A stretch of DNA of 19,751 nt from Xanthobacteraceae bacterium. Its GTDB lineage: Bacteria > Pseudomonadota > Alphaproteobacteria > Rhizobiales > Xanthobacteraceae. The notes under the pieces were generated by a model, which was not told where the DNA came from, did no database searches, and was given only the letters and a program-made list of their open reading frames with translations. The stretch covers positions 1-19,751 of the forward strand of contig JBKQQE010000313.1 of the NCBI GenBank assembly GCA_052326245.1. Direction: 5' to 3'. Shown piece after piece: positions 4,432 through 11,784 of this stretch. Both the position numbers and the translations under genes were made by a program. Numbering within the stretch: the first letter of the stretch is position 1; the number at the start of each line of letters is the position of its first letter.

Positions 4432-5595
4432 TCAGCGAACGAAAGTCGGAACGATGGTTCCGTACACGTTGGCGAGATGCCGCCCGCCGTCGCTGTCGTA
4501 GAAAAACAACAGCCCGCCAAAGCTGCTGTCCGGATCGCGCATCAGGCTGGTCAGGCGCTCGGCCTCCCAGGCCACGTCCGCGGCGGCGAAGTTGATGGTC
4601 CGGGTCTCACCGGGCTGCAGCGGCGTATTGACGTCGACCTGCAGGCCGGTCTTCGGCAGCAGGTCCTTCGGATAGCCCGGGTCGACATTGGCGACGGCGG
4701 CGGGAACCGAATGCTCGATAAAGCGCAAACTGGCGCTGGTGAATTCCCCAAGCTGCAGCGACTTGTTGAATTTGTTGGTGACCTGGATGGTGATCCGCAT
4801 GGCCCGTCCCGGCACGTCGTAGTTGGCCTTGGTCACCTTGAGGTCGACCACCTGCGGCGGGGTCGGCAGCGGCTCGACCCGCACCCGTCCGCCCTGCAGC
4901 GGGATGGTGTTCGGATATCGGTTCTCGGCCCACAGGAAACCGCCGCTGACAAGCACGATGATGCCGGCCAGCCCTGCCGCGGCAACGATCTGGTCCTGGC
5001 GCGTGATCAGCCCGGCCTCGTTGCCCGCCTTCAGCGCCATGTAGCGCGGCAGCAGCAGCGGCCGCCTGATCCACCACAGCAACCACAGCACCGCGATGAC
5101 AAACCACAGCGCGTGCCAGCTGAACACCGTGCCGAGGCCCCAATCCTCAAGGTTGGCGATATAGGTCCCGTCGATCGTCGTCACCGGCTGCCGGAAATCG
5201 GCGAAATTTCCGGTCACGTCGATCCATTCGCCGGGACCCGGCAGCGGACCGGCCTGATGGATATTGAGCATCGGATGGATGTGCCAGTGGCCGGGAATGC
5301 GGCCCTTGACCACGATCTTGAACTCATAGTCGCGGCCGAGCTGCAGGCCGGTCGACTGGATCGCCGGCACGCCGTCGATATAAGACTCGATGCGGGTCAT
5401 CGCGCCGCCGGGCGAGGCAAGCCCCAGGAAAACCGTGTCGGGCTTGGGCAGGATCTCCGGCCAGTCCTCGAAGATGCGGAATTTGCCGGTGATGGTGATC
5501 TCGTCGTTCACCGCCGCCTTGGTGCCGGAAAACTTCACGTCGTACCAGTGCACGGTGCGCATGCGAAGGAACGGCTCCTGGTTGCGCTCGCCGTG
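4432..5595 (-). other. PmoB/AmoB-like mature region of the fusion ORF (residues 302-688)
   Basis: His302, His406 and His408 have exactly the spacing (+104, +106) of His33/His137/His139 in M. capsulatus PmoB as I recall it. His317 corresponds to His48. The position of His72 is Arg341. Confidence 0.85.
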
Positions 5596-6498
5596 GGCCT
5601 GCGTGGGCATGCTGTACAGAATGCTGGTCAGCAACACCGCCAGCCCGAGCACGACCGTTGCCGGTCGCACCACGGCGCCTTTCGCGGCTGGCGCCGATGC
5701 GCCAGCCGATGCGGGCTTGTCCGACAGCCCCATCCATTTGCCGAGCTTGCTCGGCAGGAACGTGGTGCCGGCCAGCAGCTTGCCGATATGCCACCAAAGA
5801 AAGTACATCAGGATGCACATGAACCCCGAGAAGAAGGCGGACACCACCGCGGAATGGCCGCCGAAGGTGCGCAGCGTGCCGCGCTCGATGATGCGCAGAT
5901 ATTCCGGCATGCTGCTGCGCGGATACACGTAGCCGATCATGTCGCCGACCGTGAGCAGCGACCCGATATGCTCGAGCGGCAACCGGTACGCGGCGATCAT
6001 CGGCCAGTTTCCAGGATAGAACAGCAACGCGAACAGCATGCCGCCGAAAATGCCCGCGAAGATGAAATTGCCGCCGAGCAGCAGCACCAGGTCGAGCGCG
6101 ATGGCGCCGGGCAGCATGGTCCCCGGAAAGATCAGCGTGAAGGGAAACCAGGCCCAGATATGGAAGCCGTGCACGCGAACGATCCATTCGCCCAGCAGCA
6201 GCCCGACGCAGCAGAGCGTGGCGCCGATCGGCAGGCGGAAATAGGTCCAGAGAACGTAGTGAACGGCCGCGGGAAAGGTGATCAGCAGCACCGGGGTGAA
6301 GGTCGGCCAGAATTCCCGGTCCTTCCAGTCGTTCCAGAAATCCCAGTCGCCGATCGTCAGTTCGACATGGATGTGGAACGCCGCCGTCAGCACGATGAAG
6401 ATCGCAGCGGCGACCAGAAAATCGAAGGTCCGCGATACCCGCGCGGCCTTGCCTGCCGGCCACACGCCACGCCACGCCGTCTCCGTGATATTTGCCAC
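4432..6498 (-). CDS. pmoA-pmoB: Copper membrane monooxygenase PmoA-like / PmoB-like fusion protein (single 688-aa ORF)
   Basis: GTG start at 6498, with GGGGGGAA ending 4 nt upstream. The N-terminal ~251 aa carry PmoA/AmoA hallmarks: HIHVELTIGDWDFWNDWKDREFW, LLGEW, MLPGAIALD, FYPGNWP, ERGTLRTFGGH. Residues 302-688 carry PmoB/AmoB hallmarks: HGERNQEPFLRMRTVHWYD, GHWHIHPML, two TM helices, and a C-terminal cupredoxin-like segment, VPGRAMRITIQVTN...LGEFTSASLRF. No stop codon separates the two parts. Confidence 0.9.
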   Translation of the reverse strand: MANITETAWRGVWPAGKAARVSRTFDFLVAAAIFIVLTAAFHIHVELTIGDWDFWNDWKDREFWPTFTPVLLITFPAAVHYVLWTYFRLPIGATLCCVGLLLGEWIVRVHGFHIWAWFPFTLIFPGTMLPGAIALDLVLLLGGNFIFAGIFGGMLFALLFYPGNWPMIAAYRLPLEHIGSLLTVGDMIGYVYPRSSMPEYLRIIERGTLRTFGGHSAVVSAFFSGFMCILMYFLWWHIGKLLAGTTFLPSKLGKWMGLSDKPASAGASAPAAKGAVVRPATVVLGLAVLLTSILYSMPTQAHGERNQEPFLRMRTVHWYDVKFSGTKAAVNDEITITGKFRIFEDWPEILPKPDTVFLGLASPGGAMTRIESYIDGVPAIQSTGLQLGRDYEFKIVVKGRIPGHWHIHPMLNIHQAGPLPGPGEWIDVTGNFADFRQPVTTIDGTYIANLEDWGLGTVFSWHALWFVIAVLWLLWWIRRPLLLPRYMALKAGNEAGLITRQDQIVAAAGLAGIIVLVSGGFLWAENRYPNTIPLQGGRVRVEPLPTPPQVVDLKVTKANYDVPGRAMRITIQVTNKFNKSLQLGEFTSASLRFIEHSVPAAVANVDPGYPKDLLPKTGLQVDVNTPLQPGETRTINFAAADVAWEAERLTSLMRDPDSSFGGLLFFYDSDGGRHLANVYGTIVPTFVR
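5596..5745 (-). other. Fusion junction: basic/Ala-rich linker plus the retained PmoB-type signal-peptide-like hydrophobic segment
   Basis: Residues 252-301 read LGKWMGLSDKPASAGASAPAAKGAVVRPATVVLGLAVLLTSILYSMPTQA and are followed immediately by His302. An in-frame ATG at 5731-5733 (Met256) lacks an obvious SD. The junction T-Q-A|H resembles a signal peptidase I site. Confidence 0.7.
5746..6498 (-). other. PmoA/AmoA-like domain of the fusion ORF (residues 1 to about 251)
   Basis: Aligns by eye along its whole length with my recollection of M. capsulatus PmoA. That includes the C-terminal region (HIGKLLAGTTFLPSK here versus FIGRWFSNERFLQST). Confidence 0.8.
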
Positions 6499-6662: not shown

Positions 6663-7490
6663 TCAGATCGTATCGGCCAGGTGCTCGGTTTCTTCCGTGC
6701 CGTAGATCTTCTTCAACAGCTCGACGATGTTCGGCGATACCTGCATCAGCAGGCCGCCCAGCGCCAGCGCCGACCAGCCGAGCACGACAAAGCCCCAATG
6801 CAGCGGGGCGATGAACAGCTCTTCCATCAGCCAGAAGGCATGTCCCCACTCGTTGAAACCGAGATTCGGCAGAATCAGGAACGGTCCGGTCACGCCGATG
6901 ACGAACGGGACGGAGATCGCTCGGGCAAACTGCGGCAGCCGCGTCGAGGCGTACAGATACGAGCCGACCCCGAGGATGATGTAGAGCGGGATGGTCAGGT
7001 AGAACAGCACGATGTGGCTGGGCGTGAAGCTGGTGTCGCGCACCACCACCTGGTGCCAGGACGCGTCCTCTTCGCCGAAGAAGCTGGCGGTGAAGTAGAC
7101 GGCGAACACGTAGCAGAGGATCCATGCGACCAGGGTGAAGTAGCGCTTGAGTTCGGTCCTGGGCTCGATCAGGTCGAGGTGCCGGTCGCGGGTGAGCCAG
7201 AGATACGACCAGACCACGGCCGCGGCGACCGCGAGAACGGTCAGTTCGGTGTACAGCAGCGTCATCCAGTACTTGTCGAACAGTGGATTTGTGGAGTCCA
7301 TGCCCGCGGACCAGGCGAACGCCTGCTGATAGAGCCTGGCGGCCAAGTAGATCATCGCCAAGCCGCCCATCACCATGAGCGTGATGCCGAGGTTCAGATA
7401 CTTTTCCTTGGCCTTGTCCTTGGCCGCATCCCTGGTGGCGCGGTCGGTCGACACAACACCACTCGCTCCCACGTCCAACGCCTGTGTCAT
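6663..7490 (-). CDS. pmoC: Copper membrane monooxygenase subunit C (PmoC/AmoC-like)
   Basis: 275-aa ORF with ATG at 7490 and GGGAGGG 8 nt upstream. Hallmark motifs are EEDASWHQVVVRDTSFTPSHIVLFY (D142/H146/H159) and NEWGHAFWLMEELFIAPLHWGF (N213/H217/H231). There are multiple TM helices. Confidence 0.92.
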   Translation of the reverse strand: MTQALDVGASGVVSTDRATRDAAKDKAKEKYLNLGITLMVMGGLAMIYLAARLYQQAFAWSAGMDSTNPLFDKYWMTLLYTELTVLAVAAAVVWSYLWLTRDRHLDLIEPRTELKRYFTLVAWILCYVFAVYFTASFFGEEDASWHQVVVRDTSFTPSHIVLFYLTIPLYIILGVGSYLYASTRLPQFARAISVPFVIGVTGPFLILPNLGFNEWGHAFWLMEELFIAPLHWGFVVLGWSALALGGLLMQVSPNIVELLKKIYGTEETEHLADTI

Positions 7491-7521: not shown

Positions 7522-7567
7522 AGGATATGAGTCTGCGACGCTTTTGCACAAGGATAGGAGTCTGCGA
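7522..7567 (-). promoter_or_regulatory. Two copies of a 17-bp direct repeat in the pmoC leader/promoter region
   Basis: aggataTgagtctgcga (7522-7538) and aggataGgagtctgcga (7551-7567) match at 16 of 17 positions and are 29 bp apart start to start. The upstream copy overlaps the candidate -10. Confidence 0.5.
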
Positions 7568-7580
7568 ACCACGACGTCAA
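7551..7580 (-). promoter_or_regulatory. Candidate sigma70-type promoter for the pmoC-like gene
   Basis: On the minus strand: TTGACG (plus 7575-7580), an 18-nt spacer, then TATCCT (plus 7551-7556). It lies about 60-90 nt upstream of the pmoC ATG. The -10 is weak, and this rests on pattern match only. Confidence 0.25.
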
Positions 7581-7734: not shown

Positions 7735-8223
7735 TTATTGCGGCGCATCACGCGCGACGGTGACGGTAACCTGTTGCACTGAGTCCGCCACCGTGCGGTG
7801 TTGCGCATCCGCCCAGAAGACTCGCAGCGTGTTCTTGCCGGGCTTGGCCGGCAGTTCGAACACGAACAGATAGCGGTCCTCACCGAGGCGAACGAGCTGG
7901 TCGCGGCTCGGCATCATCGAGACGTCCTGGGCTTCGATGTGAAGATGCGTGCCCGGCACTGGCGCGCCCATCGTCATCTTGCCGAGGTCGGCCGGCGTCT
8001 GGAATACGATCGCCAGGCGAGTGCCTACGGTGGCGCCGTTTTGCGGCATCAGTATTTTCAGGGGCGGCAACTGCGCCGGCGCCTCGCTGGCCATCGGCAT
8101 CGTGTCCCCGCCGGTATGCTGATGGTGCATGTGCTCCATATTGGATTGCGCGACGGCCGGCGACGCGGCGAGCACCGCCAGCACCGGGAGCATCTCGAAA
8201 AGGCAGGTCCGCTTGGCAGTCAT
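7735..8223 (-). CDS. Periplasmic His/Met-rich putative copper-binding protein, possibly DUF4399-like
   Basis: From ORF 7735..8322. The start is placed at ATG 8223 because GGGGAGG lies 6 nt upstream. The longer ORF start lies inside a repeat element. Signal peptide: MTAKRTCLFEMLPVLAVLAASPAVA. The mature N-terminus is QSNMEHMHHQHTGGDTMPM. The later motifs PQNGATV, GTHLHI, PGKNTL and ADAQH resemble the DUF4399 pattern as I recall it, but this is unverified. Confidence 0.75.
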   Translation of the reverse strand: MTAKRTCLFEMLPVLAVLAASPAVAQSNMEHMHHQHTGGDTMPMASEAPAQLPPLKILMPQNGATVGTRLAIVFQTPADLGKMTMGAPVPGTHLHIEAQDVSMMPSRDQLVRLGEDRYLFVFELPAKPGKNTLRVFWADAQHRTVADSVQQVTVTVARDAPQ

Positions 8224-8255: not shown

Positions 8256-8330
8256 CTAGTGGAGTGGATTTGACATTCGCTTTGAGAGCCCGCGGCGATG
8301 CTGAATCGAAAGTCAAATCCACTCCACTAG
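8256..8330. repeat. 75-bp CTAG-bounded palindromic intergenic element, copy 1 (REP/MITE-like)
   Basis: CTAGTGGAGTGGATTTGAC (8256-8274) is the exact reverse complement of GTCAAATCCACTCCACTAG (8312-8330). About 62 of 75 positions are identical to copy 2. Confidence 0.8.
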
Positions 8331-8372
8331 TGTTCCGCTTCTAACATTCGCATCACTTTGCGGCACAAGAGT

Positions 8373-8447
8373 CTAGTGTTTTGAATTTGACATTCGCTTG
8401 GAGAGTTCGCGGCAATACTGAAGCGAATGTCAAATCCACCACACTAG
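8373..8447. repeat. 75-bp CTAG-bounded palindromic intergenic element, copy 2 (REP/MITE-like)
   Basis: CTAGTGTTTTGAATTTGACATTCGCTT pairs with AAGCGAATGTCAAATCCACCACACTAG, with a few mismatches in the outer arm. It has the same length and the same core (ATTTGACATTCGCTT...GAGAG...CGCGGC...CTGAA...GTCAAATCCAC) as copy 1. Its right end overlaps the last codons and the TAG stop (8444-8446) of the copD-fusion gene. Confidence 0.8.
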
Positions 8448-10447
8448 TGGACGTGATTGTCCGGCGCCGGCAATATTTGCGGCTCCGCGTTGAGTTTGTC
8501 CACCTGCTGGAGGAGCCGGTCCGTCGGACTCCAGCCGTTGGGCTCATCGTCGGCAATCCAGCGACCGCGAATGTAGCCGAACCGATCGATCAGGAATTCC
8601 ATGTGGCTTCTCTTCATGCCCAGGCTGCGACCATCGCCACGGTTGACCAGCGTGCGCGACAACAGTCCGTAGCTCTCCCGGATCTCGTCGGCGGCGCCGC
8701 GAACGATCGTCGCGGAGCCGCTCACGCCGGCATCGAGGGCATTGGATATCACCAGGACCACCAGACCGCGGCTTCGCATCCGATCGAGGTCCCGGCTCAG
8801 TTCGCCCATGCGCGCGAGGCTGAGTTGCTGGCCAGGGTCCGGAAACACCAGCAGGACGTTGCTTCGCTCCCGAAAGTCCTTGAGCTCGCGGGCGTTGTCG
8901 TCGTCGCCGTCCAGGTAGAAGTCGGGCGCGCCCAGCCAGGGACGCTCGGAAACGACCGAGGGCGACAGCACGCGGGCCTGAAAGCCCTGGGAAAAAGCCC
9001 GCAGGAAATTGATGATGTCCCATCGGTCCTCATCGCCCAGCACATCCGCGAATCCGGGCATGCCGCTTGGCTGAATTCCGTGCCCCAGCCACCAGTACAT
9101 GTCGCCTGCCGTGTGCAGGGCGGTATGCGGTTCGCTGAGATTCGCCGGCTGCTTCGGCAGCCCCTTCGCCGCAGGCCCATCGCCAAGGCCGCCCGGGCCG
9201 TGGCACGCCGTGCATAGCTGTTCGAAATGCTTCTTTCCTTCGAAGATCGACACCGTCAGGTACGGCACCGTGGACTGGAGATACGTGTCGGGGAAGGCCG
9301 GGACCGTCAGCGACCACAACGCCACTCCCATTCCCGCCATACCTGCGGCAGCGAGCGCTGCCAGCTGTGGCGCCGCCATGCTTCGGCGGCTCCGCACCAC
9401 CCAGGCCGCGGATAGTGCCGCAACCATGGCTCCGCCGACGACCCACAGCGGCGTCGGCCATACGGGCCAGGTCGCGTCGATGGCGAAACGAAACGGCAGC
9501 CACCAATAGGGCTGTTCGTGAGCCGCGGGGTTGGTCTGGGACAATGTGGCGGCGAGGCCGAGGACGATTGTTGCCAGGCCCAGCTCCAGCGCTACCCAGC
9601 GCGCCGCGGCGGCGTATTGTTGCGGTGCGCGCGACACTGTCGTTACAGCCGGCAGGAAGACCCGGCGCATATGGTTGGCGACCAGCAGGATGCCGACCAG
9701 CACCGCGACCTTGCCACAAATCAGCAAGCCGTAGCGTGTCCCCAGCAGATCGCCCTGCGTGCTGATAAATCCGGCGCCGAGCGCCACGCCGGAGACGGCG
9801 ATCACGACCACGCAAACCGTCGCAAGCCGCGAAAAGCGATTGAGCGCCACGGCGGTGTAACAGCGGCGCGCGTCGTTGGCGAACGGGCCGACCGTCAACA
9901 CCAGCCCGATCCAGGCCGGCAAGCCGCCGATCCACGCGCTGACGGCCACCGCATGCATGACCTGGAACGGCATGAGCCAGGCTGCCAGGTCGTCGCCGGC
10001 GGCGTGGCCGGCCAGCGGTCCGGCCGCGGCGACAACGATCGCCAGGATCAGGACCAGCCCCGCGCCCGCGCGCTCCGACCGCGTCCGCTTCGCCTTGGCC
10101 AGAAGGAGCGCGGGCGCGAGCAGGATCAGCACGAGCGAGAGCTTGAGCAGCGCGACACGGCCGTACCGCGTCTGCAACGCAAAGCTCTTCAACCATTCCC
10201 CTTCATCGATCATCCGCGCCAAGGGCAGATCGACGGTCGCGGCGGTCTGAGCGATCAAGCCCGTGACGGTCGCCAGCAAGAAGACCGACACCGCCCAGGG
10301 GAAACTTCTGCTTGCGCGATCGCGCCACGCGCGCAGAACCGGATCCGCTGTCGGGCGACTCAACAGCAGGAACGCCGCGCCGCCGACCAGCCAGGCCAGC
10401 GACAGGTACCCCGCGAGGCGAGCGAGAACCGAGACCAGCTCGGTCAC
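8444..10447 (-). CDS. copD: CopD-family copper membrane protein fused to a c-type cytochrome domain and a Cys-less thioredoxin-fold (AhpC/redoxin-like) domain
   Basis: From ORF 8444..10681. The start is placed at GTG 10447, which overlaps the copC stop as GTGA. The N-terminal ~400 aa are polytopic membrane protein with CopD-like helices (LAGHAAGDD, MHAVAVSAWIGGL). A CxxCH haem motif, CTACH, lies at 9200-9214, with a downstream GMPGF as candidate Met ligand. The C-terminal ~170 aa follow the peroxiredoxin/redoxin pattern (APDFYL..D....L.DFR...VLLVF.P ... VVLVIS ... FLIDRFGYIRGRW), but they contain no cysteine where the active-site Cys would be. Confidence 0.8.
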   Translation of the reverse strand: MTELVSVLARLAGYLSLAWLVGGAAFLLLSRPTADPVLRAWRDRASRSFPWAVSVFLLATVTGLIAQTAATVDLPLARMIDEGEWLKSFALQTRYGRVALLKLSLVLILLAPALLLAKAKRTRSERAGAGLVLILAIVVAAAGPLAGHAAGDDLAAWLMPFQVMHAVAVSAWIGGLPAWIGLVLTVGPFANDARRCYTAVALNRFSRLATVCVVVIAVSGVALGAGFISTQGDLLGTRYGLLICGKVAVLVGILLVANHMRRVFLPAVTTVSRAPQQYAAAARWVALELGLATIVLGLAATLSQTNPAAHEQPYWWLPFRFAIDATWPVWPTPLWVVGGAMVAALSAAWVVRSRRSMAAPQLAALAAAGMAGMGVALWSLTVPAFPDTYLQSTVPYLTVSIFEGKKHFEQLCTACHGPGGLGDGPAAKGLPKQPANLSEPHTALHTAGDMYWWLGHGIQPSGMPGFADVLGDEDRWDIINFLRAFSQGFQARVLSPSVVSERPWLGAPDFYLDGDDDNARELKDFRERSNVLLVFPDPGQQLSLARMGELSRDLDRMRSRGLVVLVISNALDAGVSGSATIVRGAADEIRESYGLLSRTLVNRGDGRSLGMKRSHMEFLIDRFGYIRGRWIADDEPNGWSPTDRLLQQVDKLNAEPQILPAPDNHVH

Positions 10448-10815
10448 GGCGACTTGGCGTCGGTCTTGATGCTGAACTGGTAGCCGTACTCGACCACGTG
10501 TCCGTCCTGCGAGAGAACGCGGTAATGCACGGTAAAGACTCCCGAACCGATGGTCGCGATCGGCGCCTTGACGCATTTCGGGTCGCTGCCCGCCTGCAAC
10601 TTGCCCAGCACGACGGCGGTCCCGTTGGCATCTTCCAGGGTGACCGACGAAAACTTCGCCTCGACCGCCTCGTTGAAGCAAAGATCAAGCGACGGGGGAG
10701 GTTGCGTCAGTACCGCGCGACTCCCGGGCACGGACCTGACCAGCGCTGCATGCGCATGTGCCGAACCCGGCACTGCCAGCGCGATCAGGGCCATGATTGT
10801 CATTTCTCTCTGCAT
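10444..10815 (-). CDS. copC: Periplasmic copper chaperone CopC, with a Cu(II)-type site only
   Basis: From ORF 10444..10827. The start is placed at ATG 10815, and GGGAGGAG lies upstream. Signal peptide ...ALAVPGSAHA|HAALVRSVPG leaves an N-terminal His on the mature protein. The mature protein follows the CopC pattern (SLDLCFNEAV, SSVTLED, FTVHYRVLSQDGHVVEYGYQF), including the D-x-H (DGH) of the Cu(II) site. It contains no Met, so a Met-rich Cu(I) site is absent. Confidence 0.85.
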   Translation of the reverse strand: MQREMTIMALIALAVPGSAHAHAALVRSVPGSRAVLTQPPPSLDLCFNEAVEAKFSSVTLEDANGTAVVLGKLQAGSDPKCVKAPIATIGSGVFTVHYRVLSQDGHVVEYGYQFSIKTDAKSP

Positions 10816-10941: not shown

Positions 10942-11784
10942 TCAGGGGGATCCGGCGGCTTCGAGAAACTGGATGATCCGGCTTCGCAAGGGGGGCCAGT
11001 CCTCGTGCGCCCCGGCTCCCTCGCAGTAGTCGGTCCGCCCACCGGGCGCGCACCCCGCGAACGTGACGCAGCCGTCGTCCTGTGGCAAGGGCGGCTTTGC
11101 GAGATCGCAGGCGTTGCAGCGCGCCCACCAGAGTGCGGCTTGCTTTCCCCAGCCCGGAAAATGCGTGTCCCGTTTGCCGTGCATGACCATCACCGGAATG
11201 GGCTGCGGGCATTGAAAGCCTTCGAGGTCCTTCCCGGAGAAGCCGGCGGCGCTCGGAGCGATCGCCGACACCGTCCCTTTGGTTTGCTTCAGAAGGACGA
11301 GCGCGGTCGACACTGTTCCGCCGTCGGAGTGTCCTGTCGCATAGACCCGGTCTGGATCGATGCACCACGAGCCGGCAACTTCCCCGGGTACCCGCGCAAG
11401 TCCCGTGATGGTTTGCGGCGAGAGGGGTCGGCTGCCGACATAGGCCACAATGAAGCCTCTGCGGGTCGCATCGGTGGTCAGGCGAGTCAGAGACTCGCTC
11501 TGTTCCGCGGAATGTCCCGCCGGTGCGTAGACCATGAGCAGGGGATGCGCATAGGTGGGATCGAGGTTTGCCGGTGCCCTCACATTATAGTGGAAGCCGT
11601 CGCGCGACGAGAGTCCGTTGGTGGCGCCTGCCGCGCCCGGCTTGTTGTCGCAAGAGCCTCGGCGAGCAGCTGCATACGCGAAGCTGGCGACCTGGGTCCC
11701 CTCCTGTGCTTCCGGCGATCCGGAGCATGATGCCGCCACAAGCGCGATGGCGGCGCACATCCCGATACCAACAGAGCGTGTCAC
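10942..11784 (-). CDS. Secreted lipoprotein esterase of the alpha/beta-hydrolase class (PHB-depolymerase/LpqC-like family)
   Basis: GTG start at 11784, with GAGGG 7 nt upstream. Lipobox-like ALVAAS|C. Nucleophile elbow GHSDGG. HGKRD and a C-terminal Cys-rich tail ending in HEDWP resemble COG3509-type esterases by eye. Confidence 0.7.
   Translation of the reverse strand: MTRSVGIGMCAAIALVAASCSGSPEAQEGTQVASFAYAAARRGSCDNKPGAAGATNGLSSRDGFHYNVRAPANLDPTYAHPLLMVYAPAGHSAEQSESLTRLTTDATRRGFIVAYVGSRPLSPQTITGLARVPGEVAGSWCIDPDRVYATGHSDGGTVSTALVLLKQTKGTVSAIAPSAAGFSGKDLEGFQCPQPIPVMVMHGKRDTHFPGWGKQAALWWARCNACDLAKPPLPQDDGCVTFAGCAPGGRTDYCEGAGAHEDWPPLRSRIIQFLEAAGSP

Follow-up and report, generated by a model that had tools for sequence, protein, structure and literature searches.

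CopD-type permeases have been studied in E. coli, where YebZ (290 residues) is encoded in the AZY operon just downstream of the CopC-type Cu(II) protein YobA; the H135A substitution in YebZ lowers copper uptake, and H154A abolishes it (PMC11923076). The same paper remarks that ~4% of ~50,000 proteobacterial CopDs have a cytochrome cbb3 domain linked to a Sco1- or thioredoxin-like C-terminal domain, and names among these long CopDs that of M. trichosporium OB3b, which belongs to an extended pmo operon; pmo and amo operons that are extended by copC and copD have been well documented (PMC6189053). Here we analyze a gene for a long CopD, located on the minus strand at positions 8444-10447 of a 19,751-nucleotide stretch of DNA from a Xanthobacteraceae bacterium (contig JBKQQE010000313.1 of assembly GCA_052326245.1), hereafter called the window. 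The architecture is already in print, if uncharacterized, and the window gene is a further member: its product has the three-domain order of the published proteins and shares with them the link to copC and to operons for copper membrane monooxygenases (CuMMOs), the OB3b protein being matched by description only. The remark in PMC11923076 consists of one sentence and mentions neither the absent cysteines, nor the terminal His-x-His, the two extra transmembrane helices or the neighboring gene for a 162-residue protein that are described below; it was also all that our literature search returned, with no paper analyzing the extra domains, the cysteine loss or the His-x-His end.

The window protein and YebZ have in common a homologous eight-helix core, both functionally important histidines, and a CopC-type partner for Cu(II) whose gene lies immediately upstream, while the identity between the two cores is only 23%. 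YebZ differs in lacking soluble domains, and its third partner, YebY (DUF2511), is not an immunoglobulin (Ig)-like His-x-His protein such as the one found at the window locus. YcnJ of B. subtilis, a CopC-CopD-YtkA-like fusion, is similar in that a CopD permease is fused to periplasmic or extracellular copper-handling domains; there, however, the additions are an N-terminal CopC and a C-terminal DUF1775 domain, and there is no haem. In eukaryotes, the Fre/Steap metalloreductases act before Ctr1, reducing Cu(II) prior to membrane transport. The function that we propose below would share this reduce-then-transport logic, but by analogy only: the proteins are unrelated, and in the eukaryotic case reductase and transporter are separate.

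Three domains in one reading frame

Translation of the minus strand across 8444-10447 gives 667 residues without an internal stop, followed by a TAG stop codon; the chain ends in ...APDNHVH. The GTG start codon shares bases with the TGA stop of copC in a GTGA overlap. The longest open reading frame (ORF) extends further back, to 10681, and the extra stretch overlaps copC in a different frame. We place the start at 10447, since residue 1 is where the N-termini of 99 homologues line up. A preliminary description of this DNA had given the same boundaries, had located a CTACH haem-binding motif at 9200-9214 and had noted the GTGA coupling to copC, and all of this is borne out by our analysis. It had also assumed a single gene rather than three parts with overlooked stop codons between them; the uninterrupted 667-codon frame and the presence of the same architecture in cultured isolates agree with that. 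The source genome is a fragmented metagenome-assembled genome (MAG) of 738 contigs, so that an assembly or frameshift artefact joining separate genes would be conceivable. This explanation is effectively refuted by the uninterrupted architecture and length found in hundreds of proteins, cultured isolates included, and by the exact alignment of both the N- and C-termini across homologues. Isolates and MAGs from many genera share this arrangement of three parts, which is thus neither a chance product nor an artefact of assembly.

The three-domain anatomy put forward earlier, with CopD followed by a c-type cytochrome and a redoxin fold, was likewise upheld: the first two parts score above their Pfam cut-offs, and the third is detected by profile searches, by an AlphaFold2 model and by Foldseek. 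The CopD core comprises residues 1-304 (9536-10447), with eight transmembrane helices delimited by the Pfam and NCBIfam CopD matches, the model helices and the YebZ alignment. It is matched by Pfam CopD (PF05425) with 59.7 bits against a cut-off of 32.1, as are 28 of the 28 homologues tested, and NCBIfam concurs on both the CopD and the cytochrome assignments. His148 (10004-10006) and His165 (9953-9955) fall in the same alignment columns as YebZ His135 and His154, respectively, and are invariant in the 99 homologues.

Residues 305-390 (9278-9535) form a family-specific segment that extends beyond the end of YebZ in the alignment. It consists of a conserved, predicted periplasmic loop, with a WWLPFR motif and a histidine, His310 (9518-9520), that is invariant in the 99 homologues, and of two extra transmembrane helices. 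The AlphaFold2 model, built on 99 sequences, has a predicted local distance difference test score (pLDDT) of 90.7 and a predicted template modeling (pTM) score of 0.83; it contains ten long helices, namely the eight of the CopD core and the additional helices 332-353 and 359-380. Arginines and lysines are concentrated in the loops that follow helices 1, 3, 7 and 9, those that would be cytoplasmic. As the basic loops fall on that side, the periplasmic side should hold the N-terminus, the conserved loop 305-331 and the whole chain beyond residue 381, and residues 385-667 would lie outside the membrane. In the predicted topology, the two extra helices would return the chain to the periplasm, as a c-type cytochrome requires.

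The haem domain

Residues 391-495 (8963-9277) constitute a class I cytochrome c domain, identified by Pfam Cytochrom_C (53.1 bits against a cut-off of 21.3; E = 8.7e-14), by its invariant residues and by Foldseek. The CTACH motif is encoded exactly at 9200-9214, as the preliminary description had it, and Cys412, Cys415, His416 and the axial Met463 (9059-9061) are invariant in the 99 homologues. The arrangement is that of class I cytochromes c, with CxxCH near the N-terminal end of the domain and a methionine as sixth ligand ~40-50 residues further on, and covalent attachment of the haem is predicted. Two further histidines, His441 (9125-9127) and His445 (9113-9115), are also invariant in all 99 sequences.

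The best solved relatives of the domain are a di-haem cytochrome from Kuenenia and cytochrome c552 from Thioalkalivibrio paradoxus (PDB 7o9u, 9vr0), the latter with 36% identity over the Foldseek alignment. Cytochrome c552 has a His/Met-ligated, unusually exposed haem with a potential of ~+250 mV as well as His-rich ends, and it accepts electrons from the tri-copper thiocyanate dehydrogenase (TcDH) along a path proposed to run via a surface histidine (PMC9456337). The haem domain of the long CopD thus has a relative that itself works with a copper enzyme, that shares the His/Met ligation, and whose histidines align with His441 and His445, one of those c552 histidines presumably being His83 of PMC9456337. 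T. paradoxus c552 differs in that it stands alone as a soluble protein, has disordered, His-rich ends and is not built into a transporter. The haem domain belongs to the group of large cL/c552-like cytochromes, which partner dehydrogenases and copper enzymes (PMC9456337). A tblastn search against plasmids returned only two weak matches, both to the cytochrome part.

A cysteine-free redoxin domain with a His-x-His end

The haem domain is followed by a thioredoxin/peroxiredoxin-fold domain (residues 496-654; 8486-8962) that lacks cysteines, and by a Pro-rich C-terminal tail (residues 655-667; 8447-8485) that ends in PDNHVH. For the window protein itself, the Pfam AhpC-TSA match remains below threshold (14.2 bits against a cut-off of 26; E = 0.043), while 7 of the 28 homologues match this family independently, the best with an E-value of 9e-7. 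A full-length family profile matches AhpE and ResA at positions 506-593, and a profile of the domain only, run against the PDB, finds Bcp1 (E = 6.9e-8, over nearly its whole length), AhpE (8e-8), ResA (2e-6) and TlpA (2e-3). Among PDB structures, the best Foldseek matches of the AlphaFold2 model are Bcp4, DsbE, ResA, AhpE and TlpA, with target TM scores of 0.65-0.77. Since the Pfam matches of homologues, the two profile searches and the AlphaFold2/Foldseek comparison all agree, we consider the fold to be real.

There is no cysteine in residues 496-667. The redoxin domain is free of cysteine in 92 of the 99 homologues; the other seven have a single one each, spread over five non-conserved positions, and no alignment column holds a conserved cysteine. 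A PxxxTxxC or CxxC motif would be expected in the loop that follows the VLLVF strand; this loop is variable in both length and sequence and reads PDPGQQLSL in the window protein. The earlier proposal of a redoxin fold devoid of redox cysteines is thereby confirmed, and the alignment of the 99 homologues extends the cysteine loss from one protein to the family. The domain retains the fold of the BCP/AhpE peroxiredoxins and of TlpA/ResA/DsbE, together with detectable profile homology to them, but not their catalytic cysteines. Without cysteine, a peroxidase, a thiol-disulfide oxidoreductase and a Sco-type thiolate copper site are all excluded: an active peroxiredoxin would require the peroxidatic cysteine within PxxxTxxC, the TlpA/ResA/DsbE enzymes a CxxC where helix 1 begins, and a Sco1/SenC copper chaperone a CxxxC and a conserved His as copper ligands, and no entry described as Sco is found among the top 50 Foldseek matches.

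What is conserved instead is six invariant arginines (residues 526, 546, 598, 622, 627 and 629) and, at the very end of the chain, His665-x-His667, which is preceded by the Pro-rich stretch and is invariant in the 99 sequences. These two are the only invariant histidines of the redoxin part. The C-terminal His-x-His, which the preliminary description had not mentioned, is the most striking conserved feature of the family as read from its alignment.

The CopC partner

The gene upstream of the long copD (10444-10815, minus strand) encodes the periplasmic Cu(II)-binding partner CopC, recognized by Pfam (3e-18) and by alignment with YobA. The predicted mature chain begins with a histidine, after AHA, and retains the Asp and His with which YobA binds Cu(II). 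It contains no methionine, and there is therefore no sign of a Cu(I) site; the residues present suggest a YobA-type site for Cu(II) only. The listed copC ORF begins at GTG 10827. In the orthologue of the related locus L002 there is an in-frame stop upstream, and the start is for this reason probably ATG 10815 or 10803 instead.

Distribution and link to CuMMO genes

The combination of CopD, cytochrome c and redoxin domains, the frequency of which had been left open in the preliminary description, is a conserved family trait. A word-indexed search, clustered at 90% identity, gave 336 clusters that agree in length and domain content; the label 'copper export protein / cytochrome c family protein / peroxiredoxin' is already attached to some IMG entries. 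When the C-terminal domain by itself served as query in an exhaustive HMMER scan over 1.84 billion representatives, 284 clusters were recovered, and in every case the domain forms the very end of the chain. Among the 70 listed representatives of at least 600 residues, 69 have CxxCH and 68 the His-x-His end, while the shorter matches that we sampled are apparent fragments beginning at internal methionines. As the domain is C-terminal in proteins of ~620-700 residues and short matches look fragmentary, we consider it essentially confined to this fusion.

Gene neighborhoods were counted in 60 loci, taking one genome per species. The hosts are Bradyrhizobium and other Alphaproteobacteria, Nevskiales (Solimonas, Nevskia, Panacagrimonas, Polycyclovorans and others), Burkholderiales (Rhodoferax, Aquabacterium, Methylibium, Hydrogenophaga), Cycloclasticus and Methylococcaceae. 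copC lies directly upstream of the long copD in 54 of the 60 loci, and a gene for a homologue of the 162-residue protein is present in 43, usually just after the long copD. CuMMO genes (xmoCAB) occur within the fetched stretch in 41 of the 60 loci; when only the 46 loci with a complete upstream flank are counted, the number is 39. The commonest order, seen in 33 loci, is xmoCAB followed by copC, the long copD and the gene for the 162-residue protein; five loci have a divergent arrangement, and in the clade of the window (three related loci) the copper genes come first.

Among ten genomes examined that had no xmo gene in the fetched flank, six encode AmoC elsewhere. AmoC is otherwise uncommon: it was found in none of 14 control genomes and, above the Pfam cut-off, in 4 of 401 genomes sampled from the class, that of the window included. 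In the other three AmoC-positive alphaproteobacterial genomes of this sample the long CopD was not found, even with the family profile. Conversely, two other genomes of the sample carry the domain while AmoC was not found in them; the member concerned is 30% identical, has copC upstream and ends in EHAH. It is exemplified by locus L071 (6961-9430, minus strand), whose product of 689 residues has a redoxin domain that is equally free of cysteine. The genome that holds this member yielded no AmoC, and the family therefore extends beyond monooxygenase clusters. Obligatory co-occurrence with a CuMMO can be rejected from both sides, by the three AmoC-positive genomes without the protein and by the two genomes that carry a distant member without AmoC.

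Proposed function and alternatives

We suggest that the long CopD acts as a permease for copper, has an electron-transfer module built into it and is partnered by a CopC that would bind only Cu(II); we give this reading about an even chance of being correct. In such a mechanism, the Cu(II)-specific CopC, encoded just upstream and translationally coupled, would bring Cu(II) to the periplasmic face of the permease. There, the tethered haem, itself fed from the periplasmic cytochrome pool, could donate one electron to yield Cu(I), and the copper would then pass through the His148/His165 site. The cysteine-free redoxin fold, with its Arg-rich surface and its His-x-His tail, may serve as a module for holding copper or for docking rather than as a thiol enzyme. 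Here and in most of the relatives fetched, the whole would be an accessory of the CuMMO gene cluster and would presumably secure the copper supply of the enzyme. The preliminary description had likewise envisaged redox-coupled copper handling and re-use of the redoxin fold for binding or docking, and the predicted Cu(II) site of CopC, the histidines shared with YebZ and the relation to c552 are consistent with both ideas.

Several observations weigh against this proposal. From work on a mutant of M. trichosporium OB3b, copCD is reported not to be critical either for the uptake of copper or for the copper switch (reviewed in PMC7558416), which cautions against a simple role in bulk import. How copper crosses the bacterial inner membrane, and which oxidation state is moved by CopD, is unsettled even for E. 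coli YebZ (PMC11923076). Our literature search returned no functional study of the long-CopD architecture, and the long CopD is not required by all CuMMOs.

It might instead be that the long CopD is not an importer but a copper insertase or maturation factor of the CuMMO. Copper would then come from CopC or from the cytoplasm, the haem would set its oxidation state (e.g. Cu(I) to Cu(II)), the His-x-His arm would hand it to histidines of XmoB or XmoC, and the TlpA-like domain without cysteines would dock on a cupredoxin or on the Ig-like partner. The tight adjacency of the gene to xmoCAB in most loci would fit such a role, as would the conserved exported His-x-His protein usually encoded after the long copD, the unimpaired bulk copper uptake of the OB3b copCD mutant (PMC7558416), and the fact that the structurally related TlpA docks onto the cupredoxin domain of CoxB (the Foldseek matches include 4txv). 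We nonetheless consider an insertase unlikely, since the CopD core retains the residues that are tied to uptake in YebZ and family members occur in genomes where AmoC was not found. A more specific relationship with the CuMMO, in which the tethered haem and the His-x-His arm act as a dedicated redox and copper partner, a built-in periplasmic cupric reductase by which the histidine copper sites of XmoB/XmoC are also reduced again or refilled, strikes us as improbable; if true, it would join copper delivery and electron supply to the CuMMO in one protein.

A purely electronic role is equally hard to favor. The physiological reductant of CuMMOs is unsettled, and the haem domain, which falls in the cL/c552-like group that partners dehydrogenases and copper enzymes, could be a membrane-tethered conduit through which the CuMMO receives electrons from an alcohol dehydrogenase or the respiratory chain, with the CopD part mainly as an anchor; the linkage of the gene to xmoCAB would agree with this. 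The strictly conserved transport histidines and the coupled copC argue for copper handling, however, and both the three CuMMO genomes without a long CopD and the members that occur without a CuMMO leave the conduit with little chance of being the answer. We are just as doubtful that the two soluble domains are only structural or regulatory, acting as a plug, a periplasmic redox sensor or a stabilizer with no direct part in copper chemistry. While the redoxin domain has lost every catalytic residue and the family is functionally uncharacterized, the haem ligands, His441/His445 and the terminal His-x-His are invariant down to ~30% identity, which implies selection on cofactor and metal ligands.

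Returning to the proposed permease with its electron-transfer module, we note that a CopD with its own cytochrome is the clearest genomic hint of a redox step in copper transport. Because most of the family members fetched adjoin copper monooxygenase genes, the protein is also a candidate factor in the metallation of methane-, ammonia- and short-alkane-oxidizing enzymes, a poorly understood process, and possibly in their reduction. The family-wide cysteine loss, the terminal His-x-His, His310, the putative Cu(II)-only CopC and the 162-residue His-x-His neighbor may be useful starting points for experiments.

Other features of the locus

On the minus strand, the genes of the window follow in the order esterase-like lipoprotein gene, copC, long copD, two palindromic elements, the gene for the 162-residue protein, xmoC, and an ORF combining xmoA and xmoB. 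Together with copC and copD, the gene for the 162-residue protein (7735-8223, minus strand) makes up the conserved copC-copD-x module. The protein is exported and consists of a disordered, His/Met-rich N-terminal end and an Ig-like sandwich (pLDDT above 90); H93-x-H95, M104, W137 and H142 are invariant in 29 homologues. We considered whether it might be PmoD or PCuAC and rejected both, as there was no family match, the fold matches were generic (Ig/fibronectin type III) and a C-terminal anchor is absent. We regard it as a probable copper-binding partner that lacks a structurally solved relative.

The two palindromic elements, each 77 nt long, bounded by CTAG and 83% alike, lie between this gene and the long copD, at 8256-8332 and 8373-8449; the TAG stop of copD falls within the second. 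They may form a transcript-end or stabilizer structure that separates the copper genes from xmoC (6663-7490, minus strand). Upstream of xmoC there is a match to a sigma-70-like promoter (TTGACG, 18 nt, TATCCT; 7551-7580, minus strand), which suggests that xmoC and the combined xmoA-xmoB ORF may have a promoter of their own, apart from copC-copD. That ORF (4432-6498, minus strand; 688 codons) holds PmoA-like and PmoB-like domains in a single frame. The fused frame is shared by three independent, related MAG contigs (L002-L004), while the two genes are separate in all other loci.

In Bradyrhizobium loci, a 188-residue ORF (L006:4853-5419, plus strand) lies between xmoB and copC and overlaps the stop codon of xmoB; it has no Pfam match and no counterpart in the window. 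Just upstream of copC in the window (10942-11784, minus strand) lies a gene for a lipoprotein-like esterase/alpha-beta-hydrolase of 280 residues with weak Pfam matches only; roughly a dozen other loci have a homologue close to the module.

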